A stretch of 64,000 bases of DNA, taken from positions 11,944-75,943 of the IMG/VR virus record IMGVR_UViG_2974792740_000001; one strand, 5' to 3'. The translations under genes were made by a program, and so were the position numbers. The stretch is from a virus (Duplodnaviria > Caudoviricetes). Shown one piece after another: positions 3,498-50,275 of the stretch (position 1 is its first letter; each line of letters starts with the position of its first letter). The notes below the pieces were generated by a model. The model made no database searches. It saw nothing but the letters and a program-made list of their open reading frames with translations, and was not told the origin of the DNA.

Positions 3498-3854
3498 ATG
3501 GCTACCAAGAACACCGCACCTGTGTCCCTGCTCGACAAGCTCCGTGACGACAAGCCGGAACTGTTCGGGGGCGTGCAGTTCACGCCTGAGATTTTCATCC
3601 CTTACCCGACCAAGGCGACCTGCGAGAAGATCGCTGCCGCTGAGAACGAAACTGAGGTTGCCGAACTGATTCTCGGTAACCAGATTGACGCTATTGATGC
3701 GGTGCTCGCTGAGCTTCCGCTGGCCGCTGCGGTGAATGCGCTTGCGGCTTTGATCGTGGCTGTGAAGGCAGGAATCCCGGATGTTGAGCAGGCTTTCACC
3801 GATCAGGGACTTTCCAAGGCTGATTTCGACGCCATGTTTGCCGACAAGGAATGA
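3498..3854 (+). CDS. Second tail-assembly-chaperone-like protein
   Basis: FTPEIFIPYPTKATCEKIAAAEN aligns by eye with VTPTIALTFPTKKQMDEYRDAET of 2705-3004. Confidence 0.55.
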   Translation: MATKNTAPVSLLDKLRDDKPELFGGVQFTPEIFIPYPTKATCEKIAAAENETEVAELILGNQIDAIDAVLAELPLAAAVNALAALIVAVKAGIPDVEQAFTDQGLSKADFDAMFADKE

Positions 3855-3877: not shown

Positions 3878-6800
3878 ATGGCTGCTGCTAGCGCCCGTAA
3901 GGTTATTGGCGATGCGATTCTGAAGATCGCCCCATCTTTGAATGGCTTCAAGAAAAAGGCCGAGGAAGAGCTGAAGAAGATTCAGCTCACCAAGGATGTC
4001 ACGTTGCTGGTGGACACCAAGGTGTTCAAGGCGCGTGTCGAGCAGGCTTTGAAAGAGGTCCAGAAGGAACTCACCATTGATTTGGGGGTTCGGACTTCTA
4101 CGGCTACGTCGCGGATTCGTGAGTGGCGTGAGCGTCAAGAGGCTAACGACATCCAGATTGGTGTCGACGCGGATACCGCCAAGGGTAAGGCTGAGATCAC
4201 TCAGCTCCGCGAAAAAGAAGAGCATGATGACATCCAGATCGATGTGGATGCGGATACTCGCAAGGCCCGTAATGAGATCGATGATCTGAAGTACCAGTTC
4301 CGTGTGGTTCAGGGCTTCACGGGTATGACGATCTTCAATCTGTCGAATATCACGATGGCCGCTACTGGCATTGCTGGCATTGTCGGCTTGCTGGGTGGTG
4401 TGGTTGCTGGTGCTGCGGCGGCTGCTACGGCGCTGGGCGCTATGGGTGGCGCTGTCGCTATTGGTTCGTCGGGCATCTTCAATGCGTTCACTGAGTTGAA
4501 TGCGGAGAAGAAGACTGCGGCTACGCGGGATCCGTCGAAGGATGCGAAGAAGGCCACTGATGCGTTGCGTGAGCAGCGGGAGGCCACGCAGCGTGTTGCG
4601 GATGCGCAGCAGGCGTTGCGGAATTCGTCTGACGATCTGGCGTCGGATCAGCAGAAGTTGCGTGATGCGACTCGTGATGCGACTCGTGAGATTCGTGACC
4701 AGCGTTTGGAGTTGGAGGAGACGGGCCAGTCTCAGGAGCGGGCAGCTATCAACGTTGCTCGTGCCCGTGAGCGTCTGTCTCAGGTTCGCTACGACTATTC
4801 GGTGGGCAAGGCGTCCCGGCTGGATGTGCAGGATGCTGCGCTGTCGGTCAAGGAGTCTGAGACCCGTTTGAGGCGGGCTCAGAACCAGACTGATGATGTT
4901 CGTGCGAACGCTAATCAGGTGTACGCGAATGGTGTTGAGCGCAATCCGAAGGTTGTGTCTGCTCGCAGGGATGTGGAGCGCGGCCAGCAGACTGTCAAGC
5001 GCAATGAGCGTGAGCTGTCTGATGCGGTCACTGACGCACGGAATGTTCAGGCGAATGCTGGCGCGGTAGCGGATAAGACTTCTCGTTTCGATGAGGCGAT
5101 GAAGAAGCTGTCTCCGAATGCGCAGCAGTTTGTTCGGGATGTGCGGTCGTTGGGTGGCGCGTGGCGCGAGCTGCGTATGTCGGTTCAGGACACGTTGTTT
5201 GATGGCCTGGGCGAGAAGATCAAGCTTGTGGCGCAGGGCCAGTTGCCTGCATTGCGTTCCGGTATGGAGCGTGTTGCCGGTACGGCCAATGGTGCGCTGA
5301 AGAGTTCTCTGGATGTGCTCAACAGTACGTTCACTGAGTTCTCCAATAACGGTACGGCGTTGAAGTTCTGGCAGTCTGTCCAGGATCAGTTCCGCAACTT
5401 TGCGCCTGTCATCGATGCGGTTGCACGGACTTTGACGACGTTGAGTATCCAGGCCGGTAACGGTGTGGGTACGTTCTTCGGCGATCTGGGCGTGTTCCTG
5501 AATGATGGCGCGCAGATGTGGGGCGAGTTCGGCGGCCAGGCGATGGTCACGCTGGGCAACCTGCTGCACCTGTTCAATCGTTTCTCTGAGACGTTGATGC
5601 CGACTTTCCAGGCGGCGTTGCCTGCTATCGAGCAGGTGTTCGCTTCCCTGAATCAGGTGTTGGGTGACAACCAGGGCCGTCTCGCGGAGTTCATGACCGC
5701 TATCGGTGGTGCGCTGTCGCAGTTGATTATTGCTGCTGCGCCGCTTTTGGTGGCTGTGATTGAGCCGCTGACGATGCTGTTGAATGCGATCTCGGCTCTG
5801 CCTACGTGGCTGATTGCTGGGGCGTTCGCGTTCATTGTGATCTCGCGTTCGATCCTTCAGGCTGTGATCGGTATCGGCAACTTGATCGGTCGTATTGTTG
5901 CCGCCGGCCAGGGTTTCCGGAACTTGCGGAATGCGAGTATCCACTTCTCGCAGGGTATGCGTAATGACGCAAACTTGGCGGGTACTGGTGCGAGCACTGC
6001 GATGTACAAGTTTGGTCAGCAGTACCAGCGCGTGATGGTGGGTGTCCAGGAGACTTCTACGCGTTCGTGGGGAATCTTCCGTCGCACTGCCGAGAACGCC
6101 GCTATGGGGGCGTCTAGGGCTGTCGGTAACGTCCGGACGGGTGTTGCCCAGCTCATCACTACGACTGACCGCGCTACGGCGGCTCAGGGCCGTTTGGGGC
6201 GTGCTATGGAGGCTGCGGGACGTATGTCTCCGTGGGCTCGTATTCTGTCGATCCTGACGCTTGTGGCGACCATTGCGGGCACCGTGATGATGTTGTTCGG
6301 CATGGGTGATGCGTCGGCGCAGACGTCGATGGATGGCACCACTGAGGGCATGGATGAAATGTCGTCGGGTATTGGTGGCGCGACCGATAAGATGATGATC
6401 TTCCTTTCGGTTATCACGCTGCTGCCGATGGCGTTGGGTTCGGCTACGGCGCGCACGAAGCTCGCTACGGCTGCAACGAATTTGTGGACTGCTGCGACTG
6501 GCCGTCTGGCTATGGCGATGAACTTCTTGAAGGGGTTGCCTGCCCGCCTGGCTGCGGTTGCGATCGGCACGAAGTTGGTTGCTGGCGCTACTCGGGCTTG
6601 GGCTGTTGTGCAGGCTGCGCTCAATGTTGTGATGTCCATGAACCCGATCGGGTTGGTGGTCATTGCGATTGCGGCGTTGGTTGCTGGCGTCATTTGGGCG
6701 TGGAACAAGTTTGAGGGCTTCCGCAACGCGGTGAAGTTCCTGTGGGATCTGTTCCTGAACACGAACCCGATTGCGTTGCTCGTCAAGGGCATCCTGTGGG

Positions 6801-11666: not shown

Positions 11667-13405
11667 CTACGCCGTTGGTTGACCTGTTTGAGGTGCGCGA
11701 CACGTGCGATGCCACTCGGCAGGCGCACAAGGCTATGGCGAAACGTGCACCGTGGATTCGATTGTGGGCCAACCCGCCTTCGGGCGAGGAGTCCCGTGGC
11801 CTGATTCTGCGGGGTGTTGTGCGTGACTCGATCGCAGGCCAGTTCCCGTTCACGATCAAGGAACCGGCGCAGGGCACGTTGCGTCTGCGGCTGGATCACT
11901 ATCTGGCGAAGTGGCTGATCTCGATTCCGGATGACCCGGAAGCCAAGAAGAATGTGGTGATCTCGGTGGATCACATGGGGCGCGGCAAGAATTGCAAGCT
12001 GCGCTGGTCGGGCATGTTGCATCACTGGCAGGTCACGAAGGACGGCCAGGGTGTCTATTACCTGGAAGCCGTGTTCGTTGATGACCGGCAGATGATTTCA
12101 TTTCTGCTCGGTCCCCCGAACCCGGCGTTGCCGATCCCGATCTTCCAATTCCCGCGTGTGCTACCACTTTTCGGACCTGCGCGCTGGATCGTAAGCTTCC
12201 TCATCCTCATAAACATTATGCGAGTGGAGGCTTCGTGGTGGACGCTCCCGGATGACCCTTTCACGTCGAACGGCTGGATGTCCAAAATTGACTCGTCGAG
12301 ATGGCAGGCGCACATCAAGTGCGGAAGCCTTCTGGGCGATGATTCGTTGTGGGCGTTGCTCGCTACCCGTATGCAACCACTGGATACGGTCATCAGCGAG
12401 GTACTGGATGACGCGAAACTGGTTCTGACATATCGACGCTACTTCACAGATGATGGTGAGACTGTTGCGGACGCGGGTTTGGATTTGCCGAGCATCCGTA
12501 ATGGCGCAGTCGTTTTCGAGGTTGTCGACAAGTCGGGCTACCACAATCCGGATGGCACGTGGTTCAACGGCGGCATCATTGGTGGGCTGACTCGTTCGGC
12601 GGTTCAGTTCTTGGACGGCTTCATTGAGTCGATCCTGACGCCGGTCACCGACGATCAGACCATCTGGCCGGACTCCTACTACGAGCCGGGATTCTTTGGA
12701 CAAGTGCCAAACAGGCCGTGGATAGTGTTGCGGGATTCAAAGTGGTCTCAAATAGAGACATCGAACTTAGCTTGGAATCCCGCTGGCCCTGTCTCGGTCG
12801 TGGTTGGTGGCGCGAACCCGTATGCGGATCAGTTGGCTGAGCTGACCATTCAGATGGTCGGCAACATCCTGGGCTACTTTGCTCTGGCTGGTTTCTCGTC
12901 TGCTGGCGATATTGCGGCGTCGGTGATTATGCCATTCTTGCAGGGCACAATCCTGGCGTGGCAGCGGTTCACGAACCATCAGCGTGCACACAACCTTGGG
13001 TGGGTTCACCTGTGGGAAATCTATCAGCAGGGCGGCGACTCGAATGCGTGGTCGTTGGCCGCATTGGGTGCTCTGCGTGAGGGTTTCGAGGCCACGAAGT
13101 CTCAGACCACACATGAGTTCACGATGGGCATTGGCCCGATCTATCCGGGCATCCATTTCATGCCTGGTGATCGCTTGGGGTCGACTGCGGAGAAGATCAT
13201 CCCGAACAAGGTGTTTGTGGATGCGGTTCAGGAGATCACTCTGACGTGGGATTTCTCGTCGGGTGGTTCTGACGGCCCGATGTACCAGTACACGGTTCAG
13301 GTCGGCACTAACACTGCCGCTATGTCTATTGCTGAGCGTCAGGCTCGGTTGATTTCGAAGGCTTTGGAGACGCTTCAAGAAATTGGCGTCCGAATGATTA
13401 CTTAA
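11663..13405 (+). CDS. Minor tail protein (baseplate hub-like)
   Basis: ATGA overlap; PWIRLW, NPALPIPIFQFPR, WSLAAL motifs typical of the second post-TMP gene. Confidence 0.8.
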   Translation: MTTPLVDLFEVRDTCDATRQAHKAMAKRAPWIRLWANPPSGEESRGLILRGVVRDSIAGQFPFTIKEPAQGTLRLRLDHYLAKWLISIPDDPEAKKNVVISVDHMGRGKNCKLRWSGMLHHWQVTKDGQGVYYLEAVFVDDRQMISFLLGPPNPALPIPIFQFPRVLPLFGPARWIVSFLILINIMRVEASWWTLPDDPFTSNGWMSKIDSSRWQAHIKCGSLLGDDSLWALLATRMQPLDTVISEVLDDAKLVLTYRRYFTDDGETVADAGLDLPSIRNGAVVFEVVDKSGYHNPDGTWFNGGIIGGLTRSAVQFLDGFIESILTPVTDDQTIWPDSYYEPGFFGQVPNRPWIVLRDSKWSQIETSNLAWNPAGPVSVVVGGANPYADQLAELTIQMVGNILGYFALAGFSSAGDIAASVIMPFLQGTILAWQRFTNHQRAHNLGWVHLWEIYQQGGDSNAWSLAALGALREGFEATKSQTTHEFTMGIGPIYPGIHFMPGDRLGSTAEKIIPNKVFVDAVQEITLTWDFSSGGSDGPMYQYTVQVGTNTAAMSIAERQARLISKALETLQEIGVRMIT

Positions 13406-21436: not shown

Positions 21437-21781
21437 TTATAGCTGTACTGCGGGGTTGAGCTTGGGCTGTCCTCTCGTTCGAAGCCGGGTGACCTTAGTC
21501 GCCTTCCGTGTCGCCACCAATGTAAAACCCGGCATCTGCTCCATGTATTCGGCGGTGGCATCTGAGTCGACGAAGCCCAGGTCGAGTAGGGCTTGGAGTT
21601 CGTTGAATCCGTAGTGGCGGGCAACGGCGATCACGTCGTCTGCTCCGACCTTGTTGGCTTTGCGCCTGTTGACGTAGGTACCTCGCGAGACGCCGAGCAC
21701 TCCCGCGATGTCTTCGTGCAAGACCTGAGCCCCTGTCTGGACTGTCGCGTATGCGGCTAGGTCGATCCTGCGTTCTGTCAT
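21437..21781 (-). CDS. Immunity repressor-like HTH protein
   Basis: HEDIAGVLGVSRGTYVNRRK HTH; divergent from Cro-like gene; TAGACT -10 lies 7 nt before the ATG (leaderless). Confidence 0.7.
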   Translation of the reverse strand: MTERRIDLAAYATVQTGAQVLHEDIAGVLGVSRGTYVNRRKANKVGADDVIAVARHYGFNELQALLDLGFVDSDATAEYMEQMPGFTLVATRKATKVTRLRTRGQPKLNPAVQL

Positions 21782-21818: not shown

Positions 21819-21834
21819 GTCCAACTTTTTGGAC
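21819..21834. promoter_or_regulatory. Operator palindrome GTCCAA-N4-TTGGAC, copy 1
   Basis: GTCCAACTTTTTGGAC. Confidence 0.75.
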
Positions 21835-21897
21835 GTCTTGTGATCTGGGTTACTCCTGGTCAGGAGGCCCAAAAGGACTTTAGTCCCTACACGTGGT

Positions 21898-21913
21898 GTC
21901 CAAGTTCTTGGAC
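21898..21913. promoter_or_regulatory. Operator palindrome GTCCAA-N4-TTGGAC, copy 2
   Basis: GTCCAAGTTCTTGGAC, just upstream of TTGTAA-N16-TAGTGT. Confidence 0.75.
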
Positions 21914-21955
21914 GTCACGCTTGTAATTCGATTCACGTCGGCTAGTGTTCTCAAC

Positions 21956-22297
21956 GTGATCGAGACCGCAGCGAAGGTAGCTCGCAGCAGACAGACCCCC
22001 TCGCCCATCTACCCCCGCAGTACGCCGGCCAAACGCCCGGTGAGCACGAAAGCTTCATCGGCACCGAAGCGCAAGACAGAGTGGCAGCTCCGTCTCAATA
22101 TGCCGATGGTGTACCGGCTGATGGACGATCACGGGTTCTCGGGAGCTACCGACATGGCGGTTCATTGCAAGGCATCCCGCGACACGATGTCTCGGGCATT
22201 TCGGGGAGACGGCATTACCTCCTCCCTGGCTTGCAAGGTCGCAACTGCGCTCGGGGTCCACCCGAACGAGATTTCACGCTTCCAGGATGTGGCATGA
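21956..22297 (+). CDS. Cro-like HTH protein
   Basis: GATDMAVHCKASRDTMSRAFRG...VATALGV; GTG lies 7 nt after TAGTGT (leaderless start inferred). Confidence 0.65.
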   Translation: MIETAAKVARSRQTPSPIYPRSTPAKRPVSTKASSAPKRKTEWQLRLNMPMVYRLMDDHGFSGATDMAVHCKASRDTMSRAFRGDGITSSLACKVATALGVHPNEISRFQDVA

Positions 22298-22506
22298 CGG
22301 TCAAGCAAGCGGTTCGTTACATGACGAGCGAAGACGTTGCGGAGTCCCTGGGCACCACGCCCAAGAACGTCCGGAACAAGGCGGTCGAGTACGTGCAGAC
22401 GCAGGGACGGAGGGGGTTGCGAGGTTTCCAGACTGGCCCGAAGGGTCGGTGGAGGTTCCGCCCGAGTGATGTGGAGGCTTTCGCCGAAGGGCGTCTAGTC
22501 AAGTAG
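22294..22506 (+). CDS. Excisionase-like (HTH_17/MerR-type) DNA-binding protein
   Basis: YMTSEDVAESLGTTPKNVRN...GRWRFRPSDVEAF. Confidence 0.75.
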   Translation: MTVKQAVRYMTSEDVAESLGTTPKNVRNKAVEYVQTQGRRGLRGFQTGPKGRWRFRPSDVEAFAEGRLVK

Positions 22507-22512
22507 TTCTTT

Positions 22513-22554
22513 GCCTGAGTGGCACACACGTGGGGTTCGAGTCCCCCGGCAGGC
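22513..22554 (+). ncRNA. tRNA-like minihelix (T-arm plus acceptor-like stem)
   Basis: GCCTG/CAGGC stem enclosing GGGG-TTCGAGT-CCCC. Confidence 0.4.
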
Positions 22555-22728
22555 GCGATGGGGCGTGCATAGCCTGACGACAACCTTGCGCACGTTCCCT
22601 CATTCTTTCTCTCTCTCAACACCCACGGTCTACGGACGCTGTATTCGGCGTGCGCCCGTGATGGTGTGTGTCCTTTCAGAACTCCATAGTGCACATGCGC
22701 TGCCCGTTGATACGGCCAGACGAAACAG

Positions 22729-23146
22729 ACCTGCCTCAGGCAAGTGGGGTGAAGCGGGTGGACGGTTGACTTGTCCCTGAAACCCTAAGGTGCTGTGTTT
22801 GGTGTCGACTCCTGTCGGCGGCGCAGAAGAAACCCTTATTGGGTTTGATTTTCATTAGTACTTCGATGTTTGACGAAGATATGTGCCAGTTGGTGGGACC
22901 TGTAGGGGTACAGGAGGGTTGACATCCTTTCGCCTGCCAGCTTGATCGCCTGCTTCCCCGTTGGCGAAATATGCTGCGAACACCATCCTAGCGCAGCGGC
23001 ACGAGGTGTCGTATCCCGAGTAAACCGAACCTACAGAACAGGTTTGGGTGGTACGGACGCCCCGGGATGGGGGCGCGGGAAAGTTCGCTCGTTTCGTCAA
23101 ATGTCGGTGGGGGTTCGCCGACCAACGTTGGCCCGTTGAGGCAGGT
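22729..23146 (+). ncRNA. Large structured ncRNA candidate, family unknown
   Basis: Perfect 10-bp closing stem 22729-38/23137-46, nested 11-16 bp stem 22863-78/23092-107, more than 10 internal helices and a possible pseudoknot. Confidence 0.6.
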
Positions 23147-23211
23147 TCGATCCTGGTTCCCTTGCTGAATGTCCTGTTCTTCCGTCTTCTTTCACAGATT
23201 TGAGGTGTGTC

Positions 23212-23598
23212 ATGTCCACTGGTACTGCCATGCACGAAACCTTCGAGAAGTTCGTCGCTGAGGTGCGCCGGCTCGCCAACGAGAATCCCAACTTCATCTA
23301 CAAGCCCCGAACCGTTCCGGGAAGGCAGATCACCTGCCATTACGTGAACGAGGACCGCACGGGCGGTGATTGCCTGATCGGCCAGGCGCTCTTCAATACG
23401 GGGATGCGCACGATCGAACAGCTTGACGAGGTCGAGGGCAGGGGTGCTGCCACGGTGCTCCGTCGATACTTCGACGCACCCAGTGCGCTACAGCGTTGGG
23501 CGACAGAGGTTCAGGGCGCTCAGGATGACGGCGTGGCCTGGGGTGAGGCCGTCAGGCGAGTGGACGCGCGTCACGCTGAGTTGGGTGGCGTCCAGTGA
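23212..23598 (+). CDS. Hypothetical protein (paralogue of 25714-26112)
   Basis: GAGG RBS; shared LA.ENP.F.Y, CLIGQAL, QDD.VAWG motifs. Confidence 0.75.
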   Translation: MSTGTAMHETFEKFVAEVRRLANENPNFIYKPRTVPGRQITCHYVNEDRTGGDCLIGQALFNTGMRTIEQLDEVEGRGAATVLRRYFDAPSALQRWATEVQGAQDDGVAWGEAVRRVDARHAELGGVQ

Positions 23599-45542: not shown

Positions 45543-45627
45543 GCCGTGATGCGAAGCACGAACGTTACTTCATCAGTTGCTAAAGAAACCGAACAGAAAC
45601 ACGTTCATGCAACTCAGTTCACACGGC
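45543..45627 (+). ncRNA. Y RNA-like unit 4 (short)
   Basis: GCCGTG/CACGGC stem; ATGCGAAG..GTTACTTC..AGTTCA; inner AGTTGC/GCAACT. Confidence 0.65.
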
Positions 45628-45654
45628 ACAATTCAACACACAGGAGCAGAAGGA

Positions 45655-47253
45655 ATGTCGCGCTACAACACCGCCACCAAGGCCCGACCCGCACAAAAGT
45701 CGAGCGCCATCAAGGCCGGTACGAAGCCCAAAACCAACCCACAGGGTGGAATCGGATTCAAGCGCGGCGACGCCAAGTCCGAACTGTTCCTCTCCGCTGC
45801 AACCTCATTCATGCAGCCCAAATTCTATGAAACCGAAAGCGACCTGCGCGCACGTCAGCGCAAGCTCATCGCCAAGGTGGCCGTCTCCGACCCGGAGTGG
45901 ACTTTCGAGTTCCTGACGTGGCTCCGCACCGAGGGCAACCTGCGCACCGGGTCGCTCACCCTGGCCGCTGACGCGGTTCGGGAACGCCTGAAGGCGGGCA
46001 AAACGGGCTGGAACCGGCAGATCATCTCCACGGTCCTGCGCCGGCCTGACGAGCCTGGCGAAATGCTGGCCTACTGGACAACCAACTACGGTCGCAACGT
46101 GCCGATCTCGGTCAAGCGTGGCATCGCGGACGTCATTGAGGGCCAGTACAACGAGCGCAACTTTCTGAAGTACGACAGCGCGTCTCGCGCCTTCCGGTTC
46201 GGTGATGTGATCGAGCTGACCCATCCGAAGATGACGGGCAGCCGGGGTGATCTCGCCTCGTATGCGATCACTGTGGGTAAGGGCCATGACGCCGAGATCC
46301 CGTCTTCCCTCTCGATGATCCGAAAGAATCGCAACCTGCGTCAGTGGACTCCCGGCGAGATCGTGGAGCGCGCAAAGTACCGGGGCGACGATCTGATGCC
46401 ACTGAGCGACGTGCTCAGCGCAGCAGGTATGACGTGGGAAGATATTCCCGCACTCGTCAACGGCCCCTGGACGCCCGAACTGTGGGAAGCCGCCATCCCC
46501 AACATGGGCGTGATGGCCCTCATGCGGAACTTGAGAAACTTCGACCAAGTCGGCATCTCCAAGCAAGCCGCAAAGATGGTCCGCGACAAACTGTCCGACC
46601 CTGAGGCTGTCCGCAAGTCCCGAATCCTTCCCCTCCGTGCACTGTCCGCCTACAAGGCTGTCAGCAATTCGCGCTGGCACGGCGCACTCGAAGACGCCGT
46701 GGACATCACTCTGGATAACGTGCCCGCCCTGAAGGGCCGCACGCTGATCCTGGTGGACTGCTCGGGCTCCATGTTCTTCGGTAACGGAACTGATCTGAGC
46801 TACGCAGAGTCGGCAGCAGTGTTCGGTACTGCACTCGCGGCGAAGGCAGAGAAGGCCACCCTCGTGCACTACGGGTCCAGCTCGCGAGAGGTTCCGGTCC
46901 CACGTGGCGCTTCGGTGTTGGAGATGGCCCGCTCGGTGCACAGCATGGGCGGCACAGCCACCGCAGCAGCGATCCAGCAGCACTACAACGGCCACGATCG
47001 TGTCATCCTGCTGACTGATGAGCAGCACAACGGTGGCGGCTACGGATGGGGCTCGCGCTACGTGTCTCAGAACCCGAGCGACTACGTGCCAAAGCACATT
47101 CCGCTCATCACCTTCAACCTCGCCGGATACAAGCTCGGCGGCGTCAAGGACGGCCCTAATCGGCTGACATTCTCGTCGCTGTCCGACTCGGCCTGGAAGC
47201 TTGTTGACATGTTCGGCAACGGCATGTCCGGATGGCCCTGGGAGGCAAACTGA
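45655..47253 (+). CDS. rsr: Ro60/TROVE-domain RNA-binding protein
   Basis: TROVE motifs (LRRPDEPGEMLAYW, KYD, MALMRNLRNF, RILPLR) and VWA MIDAS DCSGS..TDEQ. Confidence 0.93.
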   Translation: MSRYNTATKARPAQKSSAIKAGTKPKTNPQGGIGFKRGDAKSELFLSAATSFMQPKFYETESDLRARQRKLIAKVAVSDPEWTFEFLTWLRTEGNLRTGSLTLAADAVRERLKAGKTGWNRQIISTVLRRPDEPGEMLAYWTTNYGRNVPISVKRGIADVIEGQYNERNFLKYDSASRAFRFGDVIELTHPKMTGSRGDLASYAITVGKGHDAEIPSSLSMIRKNRNLRQWTPGEIVERAKYRGDDLMPLSDVLSAAGMTWEDIPALVNGPWTPELWEAAIPNMGVMALMRNLRNFDQVGISKQAAKMVRDKLSDPEAVRKSRILPLRALSAYKAVSNSRWHGALEDAVDITLDNVPALKGRTLILVDCSGSMFFGNGTDLSYAESAAVFGTALAAKAEKATLVHYGSSSREVPVPRGASVLEMARSVHSMGGTATAAAIQQHYNGHDRVILLTDEQHNGGGYGWGSRYVSQNPSDYVPKHIPLITFNLAGYKLGGVKDGPNRLTFSSLSDSAWKLVDMFGNGMSGWPWEAN

Positions 47254-48063: not shown

Positions 48064-48163
48064 CTGAGTAGAAGTTTCGGCTCCGTTTCATGGACACTCC
48101 AACGTCAATCAAACGGGCAGTCCCTTTCTAGGACAAAAGTCCTGTGCGGCAACACAGGCATCT

Positions 48164-48238
48164 GCCCGCGTAGCTTAATGGTAAAGCCCCGGCTTGTGGT
48201 GCCGGTGATTACGGTTCGACTCCGTGCGCGTGGAACCA
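48164..48238 (+). tRNA. tRNA-His(GTG), imperfect acceptor stem
   Basis: D, anticodon (CCGGC-TTGTGGT-GCCGG) and T arms canonical; ends ACCA. Confidence 0.75.
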
Positions 48239-48239
48239 A

Positions 48240-48375
48240 CGGCCGATAGTCCAATGGAGTGGTCCCCACATATCGAACTAGCGGGCGTGCACGCCGACGG
48301 CTAGCGAATTTCTGTGAAGGGTCCAGGACGCCCCAAATGGTGGAGGAAATGCGGGTTCGAATCCCGCGAGGCCGA
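48240..48375 (+). ncRNA. tRNA-Pro(TGG)-like RNA with ~65-nt D-loop insertion
   Basis: C1:G72, A73, GTCC/GGAC D-stem, canonical T-arm; insert forms a nested hairpin. Confidence 0.55.
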
Positions 48376-48494
48376 CGAAATGACCGGACGACCGTGGAAG
48401 CCGGTTGGTCATGAACGAGCGCAACTTGCCTGCCGGTGGCTAGGTTGCGTCTGGTAGACGGTGGGGCTTCCGGAAACAATTCCCCACCTCGCAA

Positions 48495-48571
48495 TCGCAT
48501 GTAGTTCAAAGGGTAGAGCAACCGGGCGTACGCTGAACCGGGGAATGTGGGTTCGAATCCCACCATGCGGG
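48495..48571 (+). ncRNA. tRNA-like RNA with 12-nt anticodon loop
   Basis: 7-bp acceptor stem, D and T arms canonical; loop GCGTACGCTGAA. Confidence 0.65.
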
Positions 48572-48603
48572 CTGCGCTTGATCGTGCGCGTAAACGATCG
48601 GCT

Positions 48604-48676
48604 GCCTTAGAAACCGAATTGGCTAGGTGCCTGACTTCCAATCAGGATTTTGCGGGTTCAAGTCCCGTCTAAGGCT
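48604..48676 (+). tRNA. tRNA-Gly(TCC)
   Basis: GCCTTAG/CTAAGGC; CCTGA-CTTCCAA-TCAGG; U73. Confidence 0.9.
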
Positions 48677-48810
48677 CCGGCCCTGCTGCTGGGGACCGAT
48701 ATGCCGAGTAACCAAGACTCGGTGCAGTAGCGCGGTGGTGGTGGCTAGATTCCAACAACACGTCACTAGGGTTGCAACCTGCCGATAGCGCTGTCGGCTG
48801 AATAGCTCCA

Positions 48811-48885
48811 CTCTCCGTAGCTCAGATGGTTTAGAGCAGGGCACTCTTAATGCTCGGGTCGCAGGTTCGAACCCTGCCGGGGAGA
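48811..48885 (+). tRNA. tRNA-Lys(CTT)
   Basis: Full cloverleaf; GGGCA-CTCTTAA-TGCTC. Confidence 0.93.
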
Positions 48886-48961
48886 CGGCCCTCCTGCTGG
48901 GGTTATACGCCAGATCGCTACTGGCACAGCAGGGCATCAGGCAACGTCGGGCCTGATGTTT

Positions 48962-49032
48962 CGTCGCATAAGTCTCAGCGGCAAGAGCTGGGGGTATTCC
49001 CCTGGTCGCCGGTTCGATTCCGGCTGCGACAC
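48962..49032 (+). ncRNA. Initiator-tRNA-like RNA with 4-nt anticodon loop
   Basis: C1xA72 mismatch, G-C-rich anticodon stem, loop TATT, canonical T-arm. Confidence 0.6.
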
Positions 49033-49228
49033 GATGGGGTGGTATTCCCAGTTAGCACAACCAGTCGACGGTCCGTGCTTGAAAAATGACCAGGGCGGCA
49101 TTGCAGTGCCAACTAGCCACGACGGACTAAGCCCGATGAAGGCCGTCTAACCCCTCGCTGGTCAAGCCCTGCAAGGTACGGGCCGGGGACAATTTGGAGT
49201 GCACATCAAGCGGGGGTGCACTCATTCG

Positions 49229-49312
49229 GGGCTTGTGGCGGAATTGGCAGACGCGCCGGATTCAAAATCCGGAGTCCTTTCGGACGTGTGGGTTCGACCC
49301 CCACCAGGCCCA
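49229..49312 (+). tRNA. tRNA-Leu(CAA)
   Basis: CCGGA-TTCAAAA-TCCGG; long variable arm; A73. Confidence 0.93.
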
Positions 49313-49313
49313 C

Positions 49314-49568
49314 ATGGCACTGAGACCGCCACCACTGGCAGAACCCCATGAGGTTGATGACCTCTCGCATCTCGAAGCACTGAGGCGACTTTCAGCCATC
49401 AGCGCGTACACGTACGCGGCCCACAATCAAGTGGATGCGGACGTGAACTCAATGGCAACGAAGGGCTGTTGGGCACCACCAATCGAGCACGGTACCTACA
49501 AGCCGGGTCACGCACCTTCGGGTGCGTATGCCCGCCTGATCGGCCTGCTCACGAAGGGAAAGAAGTAG
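49314..49568 (+). CDS. Hypothetical protein
   Basis: ATG 2 nt after the tRNA-Leu discriminator base. Confidence 0.45.
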   Translation: MALRPPPLAEPHEVDDLSHLEALRRLSAISAYTYAAHNQVDADVNSMATKGCWAPPIEHGTYKPGHAPSGAYARLIGLLTKGKK

Positions 49569-49571
49569 CAC

Positions 49572-49757
49572 ATGTTTGGACGTAAGAAGAAGCGCGCCAC
49601 CAGCGCCACGCCCTCGCGCAGCAGCTACGACAGCTGCAGCAGCACCACCCCGTATGGCGGCTACAGCAACAGCGGCTACGACAGCGGCTCGTCCTACTCG
49701 TCGTCGTGTGACAGCTCGTCGTCCTCGTCTTCGTGTGACAGCGGCGGAAGCTTCTGA
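49572..49757 (+). CDS. Ser-rich small protein
   Basis: SSYSSSCDSSSSSSSCDSGG; TGATG overlap with next gene. Confidence 0.55.
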   Translation: MFGRKKKRATSATPSRSSYDSCSSTTPYGGYSNSGYDSGSSYSSSCDSSSSSSSCDSGGSF

Positions 49758-49948
49758 TGGGTACCGCGCTGGTAATCGGGGGGATTCTCCTCGGGGCGCT
49801 GCTCATCGGCGCGGCGGTCGCATGTGTCGCAAAGGCTGTGCTCGACTCGCCTCTGTCGCAGGGTGTTGCGCAGGGAAGCTCCACCTACAAGGGTGGGTTT
49901 GACCTCAGTCATCCCACTGGGGTTGCGCTACTGGTGGCGGCTACCTGA
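49757..49948 (+). CDS. Small membrane protein
   Basis: Hydrophobic N-terminus. Confidence 0.55.
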   Translation: MGTALVIGGILLGALLIGAAVACVAKAVLDSPLSQGVAQGSSTYKGGFDLSHPTGVALLVAAT

Positions 49949-50043
49949 TGGAGTTCCTGGCAATCGTTGGCGCAGTGACATGCATCGCCGTAATCTGTTA
50001 TGTCGCAGTCGGCGTCGGGGTTCTCATCACGCTCTCGCGGTGA
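49948..50043 (+). CDS. 31-aa membrane peptide (absent from ORF track)
   Basis: MEFLAIVGAVTCIAVICYVAVGVGVLITLSR; TGATG overlap. Confidence 0.55.
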   Translation: MEFLAIVGAVTCIAVICYVAVGVGVLITLSR

Positions 50044-50051
50044 GCCCGTAT

Positions 50052-50122
50052 TCCCTGATCGTCTAACGGCAGGACGCCGCGCTCTGGACGCGGAGATTGA
50101 GGTTCGAATCCTTGTCGGGGAG
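50052..50122 (+). tRNA. tRNA-Gln(CTG)
   Basis: U1:A72, G73; CCGCG-CTCTGGA-CGCGG. Confidence 0.93.
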
Positions 50123-50183
50123 CTTGCCCTTGGGATGGGGTATAGCGCGGTTGGCCGAACCGCGATAAACAAAATGGCCGTAA

Positions 50184-50262
50184 CCGGGTAACCGCATGGA
50201 GCGGAATGGGACTGTAAATCCCAGGCGGAAACGCACCGGAGGTTCGATTCCTTCTACCCGGA
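50184..50262 (+). tRNA. tRNA-Tyr(GTA) with C1:G72
   Basis: TGGGA-CTGTAAA-TCCCA; long variable arm; atypical short 8-9 connector. Confidence 0.85.
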
Positions 50263-50275
50263 CCCAACAGACGAA

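Follow-up and report, generated by a model that had tools for sequence, protein, structure and literature searches.

A conserved and structured non-coding leader with an rRNA-type boxA/boxC-like box ahead of the early operon of Gordonia phages

The window, which is the whole stretch of DNA analysed here, has 64,000 nucleotides and runs from base 11944 to base 75943 in a phage genome of 75,943 bp. It contains a repressor gene, a divergent cro-like gene and an excisionase-like reading frame, and an ORF-free gap separates them from the early operon (Table 1). The protein neighbours of the gap match only repressor, excisionase and unknown-function families, and phage Neville has an early gene with 53% identity. 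In Gordonia phage Rabbitrun, all genes from cro on are rightward across 38.7 kb, with tRNAs and a Ro60/TROVE gene among them. Operator-like palindromes of the form GTCCAA-N-TTGGAC flank the repressor/cro divergent promoter region at 21819-21837 and 21898-21916, and the related palindrome CCAACGTTGG occurs at 23122-23131 inside the RNA described below.

Table 1. Genes, hairpins and sequence signals at and around the gap (window coordinates).
Feature	Position	Strand or direction	Description or basis
Repressor gene	21437-21781	leftward	
cro-like gene	21893-22297	rightward	operators between repressor and cro-like gene
Excisionase-like (xis-like) reading frame	ends 22506		
ORF-free gap	22507-23211	+	~700 bp between cro/xis genes and early operon
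Hairpin 1	22512-22556	+	5-bp GCCUG/CAGGC, asymmetric internal loop, 4-5 bp GGGG/CCCC, 7-nt loop UUCGAGU
Hairpin 2	22557-22601	+	RNAalifold; alignment columns 54-67/87-98; 90.6% of cells paired; two pairs changed on both sides
C/U-rich, G-poor tract, predicted single-stranded	22596-22625	+	
Hairpin 3, boxB-like by position	22619-22667	+	outer 10-bp helix around inner 8-bp helix; ends 1 nt before box
boxA/boxC-like box, TGTCCTTTCAGAACTCCATAGTG	22669-22691	+	19/23 matches to actinobacterial rRNA leader consensus TGTTGTTTGAGAACTCAATAGTG
Small hairpin CUG.CCGU/ACGG.CAG	22700-22719	+	RNAalifold; wobble-compatible changes in Octobien group
Multi-helix domain, ~420 nt	22729-23146	+	z -3.06; helix-by-helix check; compensatory changes vs Rabbitrun
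Terminator-like hairpin AAACCC/GGGUUU, then GAUUUUCAUU	22830-22846	+	pattern scan; in window phage and Rabbitrun
16-bp long-range stem	22863-78/23092-107	+	16/16 pairs in window; encloses variable centre with six or seven hairpins
3' hairpin CAGG-UUCGAU-CCUG	23142-23155	+	identical in Rabbitrun
Pyrimidine-rich spacer and Shine-Dalgarno GAGG (23202-05) of first early gene	23156-23211	+	sequence
First early gene	ATG at 23212	+	matches phrog_572

The gap region is 81.5% identical to that of Rabbitrun, and its first 180 nt are ~70% identical to Octobien14 and Syleon, all three being phages of cluster DU in the subfamily Deeyouvirinae. A fifth copy comes from L005, a 76,731-bp IMG/VR contig. The set of five phages falls into two clades, one with the window phage and Rabbitrun and the other, the Octobien group, with Octobien14, Syleon and L005/Kudefre. 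A protein-anchored homologue search returned Rabbitrun only, and the first metagenome scan for the element gave no match. Pattern scans of viral contigs found the DU phages only, plus chance matches, and a pattern scan of genomes found only chance matches in unrelated bacteria.

Left of the window, an integrase homologue lies on the minus strand at genome 2325-3425, with 93% identity to Rabbitrun gp10. At genome ~3625-3680, ~190 nt from the integrase, there is a core similar to a tRNA 3' half (...TTCAAAATCCGTACCGGTGTGGGTTCGACTCCCACCGGGGGCACA), also found in Rabbitrun, and by its sequence it is probably an attP in a tRNA gene. Because the integrase homologue and the attP-like core are both present at the left genome end, the window phage, a temperate phage of cluster DU, integrates. 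The Rabbitrun annotations contain neither parA nor parB.

The plus strand of the window at 45577-47253 encodes a 558-aa protein with TROVE (Ro60) and weak VWA domains, adjoining a tRNA cluster at 48163-50264. The Rabbitrun annotation places an RNA ligase, a polynucleotide kinase and a nucleotidyltransferase upstream of the counterpart of this protein. The gap RNA was considered as a bacterial or phage Y RNA and this was rejected, the Ro60 gene being 22 kb away.

A first-pass annotation of the letters alone had placed a densely structured RNA of ~420 nt at 22729-23146 and had seen no convincing features in the ORFs there, and the latter is borne out. When segments of the gap are translated in all six frames, each frame is equally similar to Rabbitrun, and no frame-specific match to the Octobien group was found. 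The small ORFs annotated in the gap are different and non-homologous from genome to genome, carry single-base indels inside and have no Pfam hits. A reading in which they are real genes of small proteins (e.g. Rabbitrun gp45 and gp46) has their presence in GenBank records in its favor and all of these observations against it, so it is extremely improbable. From the sequence comparisons, the GenBank small ORFs in the gap are probably not genes.

Known RNAs are likewise missing from the gap. The Rfam 15 families, among them tmRNA, tRNA, RNase P, GOLLD, ROOL, Y RNA, introns, riboswitches and C4, give no match in it at gathering scores and only seven tRNAs elsewhere in the window, and a search of 22300-23400 at E up to 10 leaves only a chance fragment of a lncRNA. 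ARAGORN finds no tRNA or tmRNA in the gap. The proposal of an undescribed non-coding RNA at the head of the early operon thus stands as to its being structured, non-coding and unmatched in Rfam, whereas nothing points to the suggested ribozyme, decoy or anti-defence scaffold. No promoter is predicted within or flanking the gap, a sigma-70-like one included, and the sole same-strand terminator-like site is that at 22830-46, inside the fold. Hence, no signals mark off a discrete gene.

The part conserved across the subfamily is not the 420-nt fold but a 5' module at 22510-22691. In the region that extends from the lysis genes up to 27.5 kb, blastn detects similarity to Octobien14 and Syleon only in the stretch 22510-22688. 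The repressor, cro and early genes on either side are too diverged from theirs to be matched as DNA. Octobien14, Syleon and Kudefre, which form the Octobien group, are 97% identical across the whole gap. The gap is conserved no worse than the neighbouring genes. The first-pass annotation had treated 22510-22728 as mere flanking hairpins, and this underrates what is the most widely conserved part, with an rRNA-type boxA/boxC-like signal in it. Its boundaries of 22729-23146 were likewise too narrow, as the element is the whole gap.

The alignment of the five sequences gives a consensus of four hairpins in the 5' module, whose folding z-score is ordinary. Hairpin 1 is conserved in all five phages and resembles a tRNA acceptor/T-arm minihelix, and is found by neither ARAGORN nor the Rfam tRNA model. 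Its candidacy as attP was rejected, since the attP-like tRNA half adjoins the integrase at genome ~3650. Within the C/U-rich tract, UCCCUCAUUCUUUC (22596-22609) is invariant in all five phages. At most, this tract may be a rut-like site for Rho loading or another boxA-like site.

Hairpin 3 covaries. Its outer helix is 100% paired in each of the five sequences, although three of its pairs differ on both sides and two on one, and a single GC pair of the inner helix is swapped to CG. Out of 500 column shuffles, none attains the observed covariation score, and sliding the partner strand lowers the pairing from 94% to 34-49%. The statistics are weak in that five sequences in two clades were compared, so that the covariation of the 5' module is supportive of the structure and short of proof.

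Directly 3' of hairpin 3 comes the most conserved single-stranded block, GUGUGUCCUUUCAGAACUCCAUAGUG, and the form GUGU(U)CCUUUCAGAACU(C/U)CAUA is common to all five phages. The stretch CUUUCAGAAC belongs to the boxA/boxC-like box. The segment GAACUC.AUAG of the box is what we take to be the NusA-binding boxC region. The box lies in untranslated sequence and on the same strand as cro and the 38.7 kb of genes downstream, so it is in the sense orientation by annotation. The box is invariant in the five phages except that in the Octobien group it has an extra C as a 1-nt insertion and a diverged 3' end, with AUAUGC in place of AUAGUG. Four of the 23 positions differ from the rRNA consensus, two of them being G-to-C changes inside boxA.

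On both strands of the 75,943-bp genome, the box is the unique best site, the next best having 15/23 matches. A score of 19/23 is reached by one of 200 simulated first-order-Markov genomes, a figure to be read with the fact that the consensus was picked after the resemblance to mycobacterial rRNA leaders had been noticed. Published work describes a conserved mycobacterial leader motif, CL2, as a putative boxA antitermination element (PMC10218544) and summarises that NusA of M. tuberculosis binds boxC specifically, an AUA being critical (PMC2724277). The T7 boxA is a bench-tested precedent of a phage boxA (PMC3709561). A text search of the literature for the box sequence gave nothing useful.

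The consensus itself was derived from metagenome rRNA loci by a scan for GTTTGAGAACTNNANAGTG, and 80 of the matches listed were analysed. In 18 of these 80 loci, the motif precedes the 16S start by 96-246 nt, and in another 35 it lies in the 16S-23S spacer, 197-428 nt past the 16S end. These 53 loci gave the consensus, and most of the remaining ones are cut by contig ends. The rRNA leader form of the box is (G)TGTTGTTTGAGAACTC(A/G)A(T/C)AGTGTG, and a GC-rich hairpin comes just before it there as well. Capture of a host rRNA leader was rejected, as blastn against the 80 rRNA loci found no similarity beyond the box. Therefore, the box is mimicry of the signal rather than a captured leader.

The rRNA-type box GTTTGAGAACTNNANAGTG also occurs in more than 100 IMG/VR viral contigs, and no 16S start or end is near it in the 80 of them that were examined. 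In about 60 of these 80, the box has one and the same context, ...GGGCAAGACAAAAGCAAGTTTGAGAACTTAACAGTGTTTCCC..., which suggests a single phage lineage. Roughly a dozen of the box-bearing viral contigs are high in GC, and in contig L164 the box is ~120 nt upstream of a tRNA gene.

The 420-nt domain folds on the plus strand at -175 kcal/mol, compared with -156.8 ± 5.9 for dinucleotide shuffles, and none of 100 shuffles is as good. The minus strand gives a z-score of only -1.38 in the shuffle test. With this asymmetry and the compensatory changes described below, the structured plus-strand region of the first-pass annotation is real. The Rabbitrun copy of the domain has a z-score of -2.97, and the Octobien14 counterpart one of -0.75, which is thermodynamically ordinary.

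The alignment to Rabbitrun is informative because the two ends of the domain are near-identical while the centre has diverged, the identities being 91% (22729-22880), 56% (22881-23085) and 95% (23086-23170). Most helices are kept in Rabbitrun through compensatory changes. The long-range stem keeps 15 pairs there with one mismatch, and three consecutive pairs are compensatory (22871/23099, 22872/23098 and 22873/23097). Three compensatory pairs are found also in each of the helices 22884-86/22999-23001 and 22888-90/22940-42, and one at 22975/22995. As read from the two folds, the GGGAUG-capped hairpin at 23058-75 keeps its loop with three stem pairs swapped, and the hairpin at 23025-47 keeps its outer pairs and is longer in Rabbitrun.

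When the minimum-energy structure of the window is imposed on Rabbitrun, 13 of the doubly changed pairs stay paired and 6 break, compared with 7 and 8 in the minus-strand control. Among the one-sided changes, most replace C-G by U-G or G-C by G-U. They favor the plus strand, because an RNA of this strand tolerates them and one of the minus strand would not. This agrees with the preference for the plus strand that the many G-U pairs had suggested at the outset. Taken together, the conserved core, the variable centre and the compensatory changes argue, at the level of the alignment, that the fold of the 420-nt domain is under selection.

Not every helix proposed for the domain survives the comparison. 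Eleven of the 12 equal-length helices are fully complementary where they were placed, and the remaining one, 22805-11/22816-22, is mis-registered by two or three bases, the true hairpin being 22803-08/22813-18. The proposed 10-bp closing stem 22729-38/23137-46 is doubtful, since its sequence is invariant and the only substitution (22736 U to C) breaks it. That substitution improves a rival local hairpin, 22733-38/22745-50, and the 3' arm of the stem overlaps the hairpin at 23142-55, which covaries in the Octobien group, where it reads CGG-UUCGAU-CCG with an A-U to C-G swap. Similarly doubtful is the pseudoknot proposed between a loop at 22755-68 and 23123-35, where RNAalifold draws a nested long-range helix, 22753-87/23108-37, and the sequence is invariant. 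A duplex scan for partners of the 5' strand gives many strong alternative pairings in this GC-rich sequence.

Structural homology of the 420-nt domain across the two clades could not be established, as only short motifs align. The motifs common to both clades in it are only GTTGACTTGTCC, CCTGCTTCCCCGTTGG, GGTTCGATCC and CTGGTTCC. Of these, GTTGACTTGTCC is kept in all five phages, and so is CCTAA(A)GG, the pair lying at 22765-22789 in the window and at 4206-4234 in Octobien14. The distance from TTGACT to TAA(A)GG is 14, 16 or 17 nt in different phages and differs by 2-3 nt between the clades, and such variation fits neither a promoter of fixed spacing nor a single conserved helix. The terminator-like hairpin at 22830-46 is absent from the Octobien group.

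Two further observations concern the gap. In the gap of Octobien14, ahead of the first early gene, there is a strong hairpin at 4636-4672 with the sequence GGUUC-CUCCC-UU-CCCG-AAA-CGGG-UU-GGGGG-UU-GAACC. This hairpin differs between Octobien14 and Syleon/Kudefre by one compensatory change (C-G to U-A) and two wobble changes, and has equivalents in contigs L003 and L005 and no counterpart in the window phage. In the window phage, GUUCGAUCCUGGUUC at 23145-23159, ~470 nt after the boxA-like box, matches the universal 5' end of 16S rRNA, GUUUGAUCCUGGCUC, at 13 of 15 positions. This resemblance may be chance, the stretch being also a T-loop-like hairpin, or may be further mimicry of an rRNA operon.

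We conclude that the element is a real, conserved and structured non-coding leader of an undescribed family, so far found in a few Gordonia phages. That the gap is a functional RNA element is highly probable. Because the 5' module is its most conserved part and carries the rRNA-type box, the likeliest reading moves from a free RNA to a cis-acting read-through leader. Specifically, the box would be a working Nus site and the fold a part of the leader, and the leader would load Nus factors in a nutR-like position and an rRNA-like style for the ~39-kb rightward operon. We give this reading, which is drawn from sequence features, a tentative probability of roughly 0.45.

In the antitermination reading, the whole gap would be one untranslated and folded leader on the rightward early transcript from the cro promoter. 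Once the polymerase has passed cro and the xis-like gene, the box would be bound by NusB-S10 and NusA of the host, together with NusG. The binding would convert the polymerase to a form resistant to termination and Rho, as at the rRNA leaders, lambda nutR and T7 boxA. The modified polymerase could then cross ~500 nt of untranslated RNA and continue through the ~39-kb operon, in which the tRNA and Y-RNA stretches would be themselves untranslated.

The 420-nt domain, directly downstream of the box, would form a folded body of the leader that differs between lineages, its core being conserved and its centre evolving fast. It could act as a folding or termination barrier that makes the early expression depend on the modified polymerase. 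Alternatively, it could protect the transcript against Rho and RNases, or be a processed product. A bare Nus site needs ~30 nt, and the maintenance of a specific 420-nt fold is unexplained by it.

For that reason, a stand-alone stable RNA stays a serious rival, if an unlikely one. The 420-nt domain would then be cut from the early transcript, for instance by RNase III at the long stems, and may act in trans as a decoy, scaffold or catalyst. Its specific multi-helix fold, in which the core is conserved and the periphery varies in the manner of functional RNAs, its enclosure by long-range stems and the rRNA-style box that precedes it as in rRNA operons all speak for this. Opposed to them are the missing promoter and the position of the only same-strand terminator-like site inside the fold, the failure of any Rfam family or ribozyme motif to match and the lack of clear conservation of the fold in the Octobien clade. 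A related and similarly doubtful version is a miniature rRNA operon. In it, the box would load an antitermination and RNA-chaperone complex that transcribes the ~420-nt RNA and helps it fold, and the RNA, once released at the long stems, may act in trans early in infection on, for example, ribosomes, the polymerase or a defence system.

If the RNA had no dedicated function, the gap would be a GC-rich spacer with operators or promoters at the DNA level, folding by chance or composition. The wealth of strong alternative pairings in GC-rich sequence, the ordinary z-scores of the 5' module and of the Octobien region and the -35-like TTGACT within the conserved GTTGACTTGTCC are all compatible with it. 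Yet the consecutive compensatory changes, found in local helices as well as long-range ones, are not, nor are the strand asymmetry and the G-U-compatible substitutions in favor of the plus strand. Moreover, no sigma-70-like promoter was found, and the spacing from TTGACT to TAA(A)GG varies, so we regard a spacer as quite improbable. Very improbable is an RNA-based replication element, whose transcript primes or controls replication in the style of the ColE1 RNA II or the cluster A origins. The gap is ORF-free, structured and ~700 bp long in an actinophage, and it thereby resembles the ~600-bp ORF-free RNA-based origins of non-RepA cluster A mycobacteriophage prophages (Wetzel et al. 2020, PMC7157519), with 600-700 bp and a non-coding transcript on both sides. 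However, the prophages with such origins have no integrase, and the origins lie beside parABS, whereas the window phage has an integrase and an attP-like core, no annotated parABS and no sequence similarity to any cluster A phage. In addition, the gap lies on a lytic early transcript that is repressed in the lysogen. An extrachromosomal RNA origin in particular was rejected on account of the integrase homologue and the attP-like core at the left genome end.

Among the known systems, the antitermination leader is closest to the rRNA leaders, which have a boxB hairpin, boxA and boxC, bind NusB-S10, NusA, NusG and SuhB and include the mycobacterial CL2. Both have a hairpin followed by the box, with 19/23 matches here, in the sense orientation and in untranslated RNA, and then a large folded RNA closed by long-range stems. 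They differ in location, the phage box being ~780 nt beyond the start of cro rather than close behind a strong rRNA promoter. The phage box also has four mismatches (two in the boxA core), and the RNA that follows it is not rRNA.

The map order of promoter, cro, signal and early genes is that of lambda nutR, and as with nutR and the T7 early boxA, a phage copy of the host boxA stands ahead of a long operon. Unlike lambda, an N-like protein and a lambda-type boxB loop are not among the features identified here. The phage box is also of the actinobacterial type, and what comes after it is ~500 nt of structured RNA and not a simple terminator as in lambda and T7. GOLLD, ROOL, tmRNA, Y RNA and tRNA-like RNAs are comparable in size, phage setting and T-loop-like GGUUCGA hairpins, but their covariance models give no match at E up to 10 and the element is not beside the tRNAs or the Ro60 gene.

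Processive antitermination by host Nus factors is textbook knowledge for lambda, T7 and the rRNA operons in E. coli. To our knowledge, no Nus-factor antitermination has been described for phages of Actinobacteria. A host-type boxA/boxC in the leader of a Gordonia phage offers a directly testable case. The presence of the box in more than 100 viral contigs, with no rRNA nearby in the 80 examined, suggests that the strategy is widespread. The 420-nt fold belongs to no known RNA family and, if it has a role beyond that of a leader, would count as a new large phage RNA.
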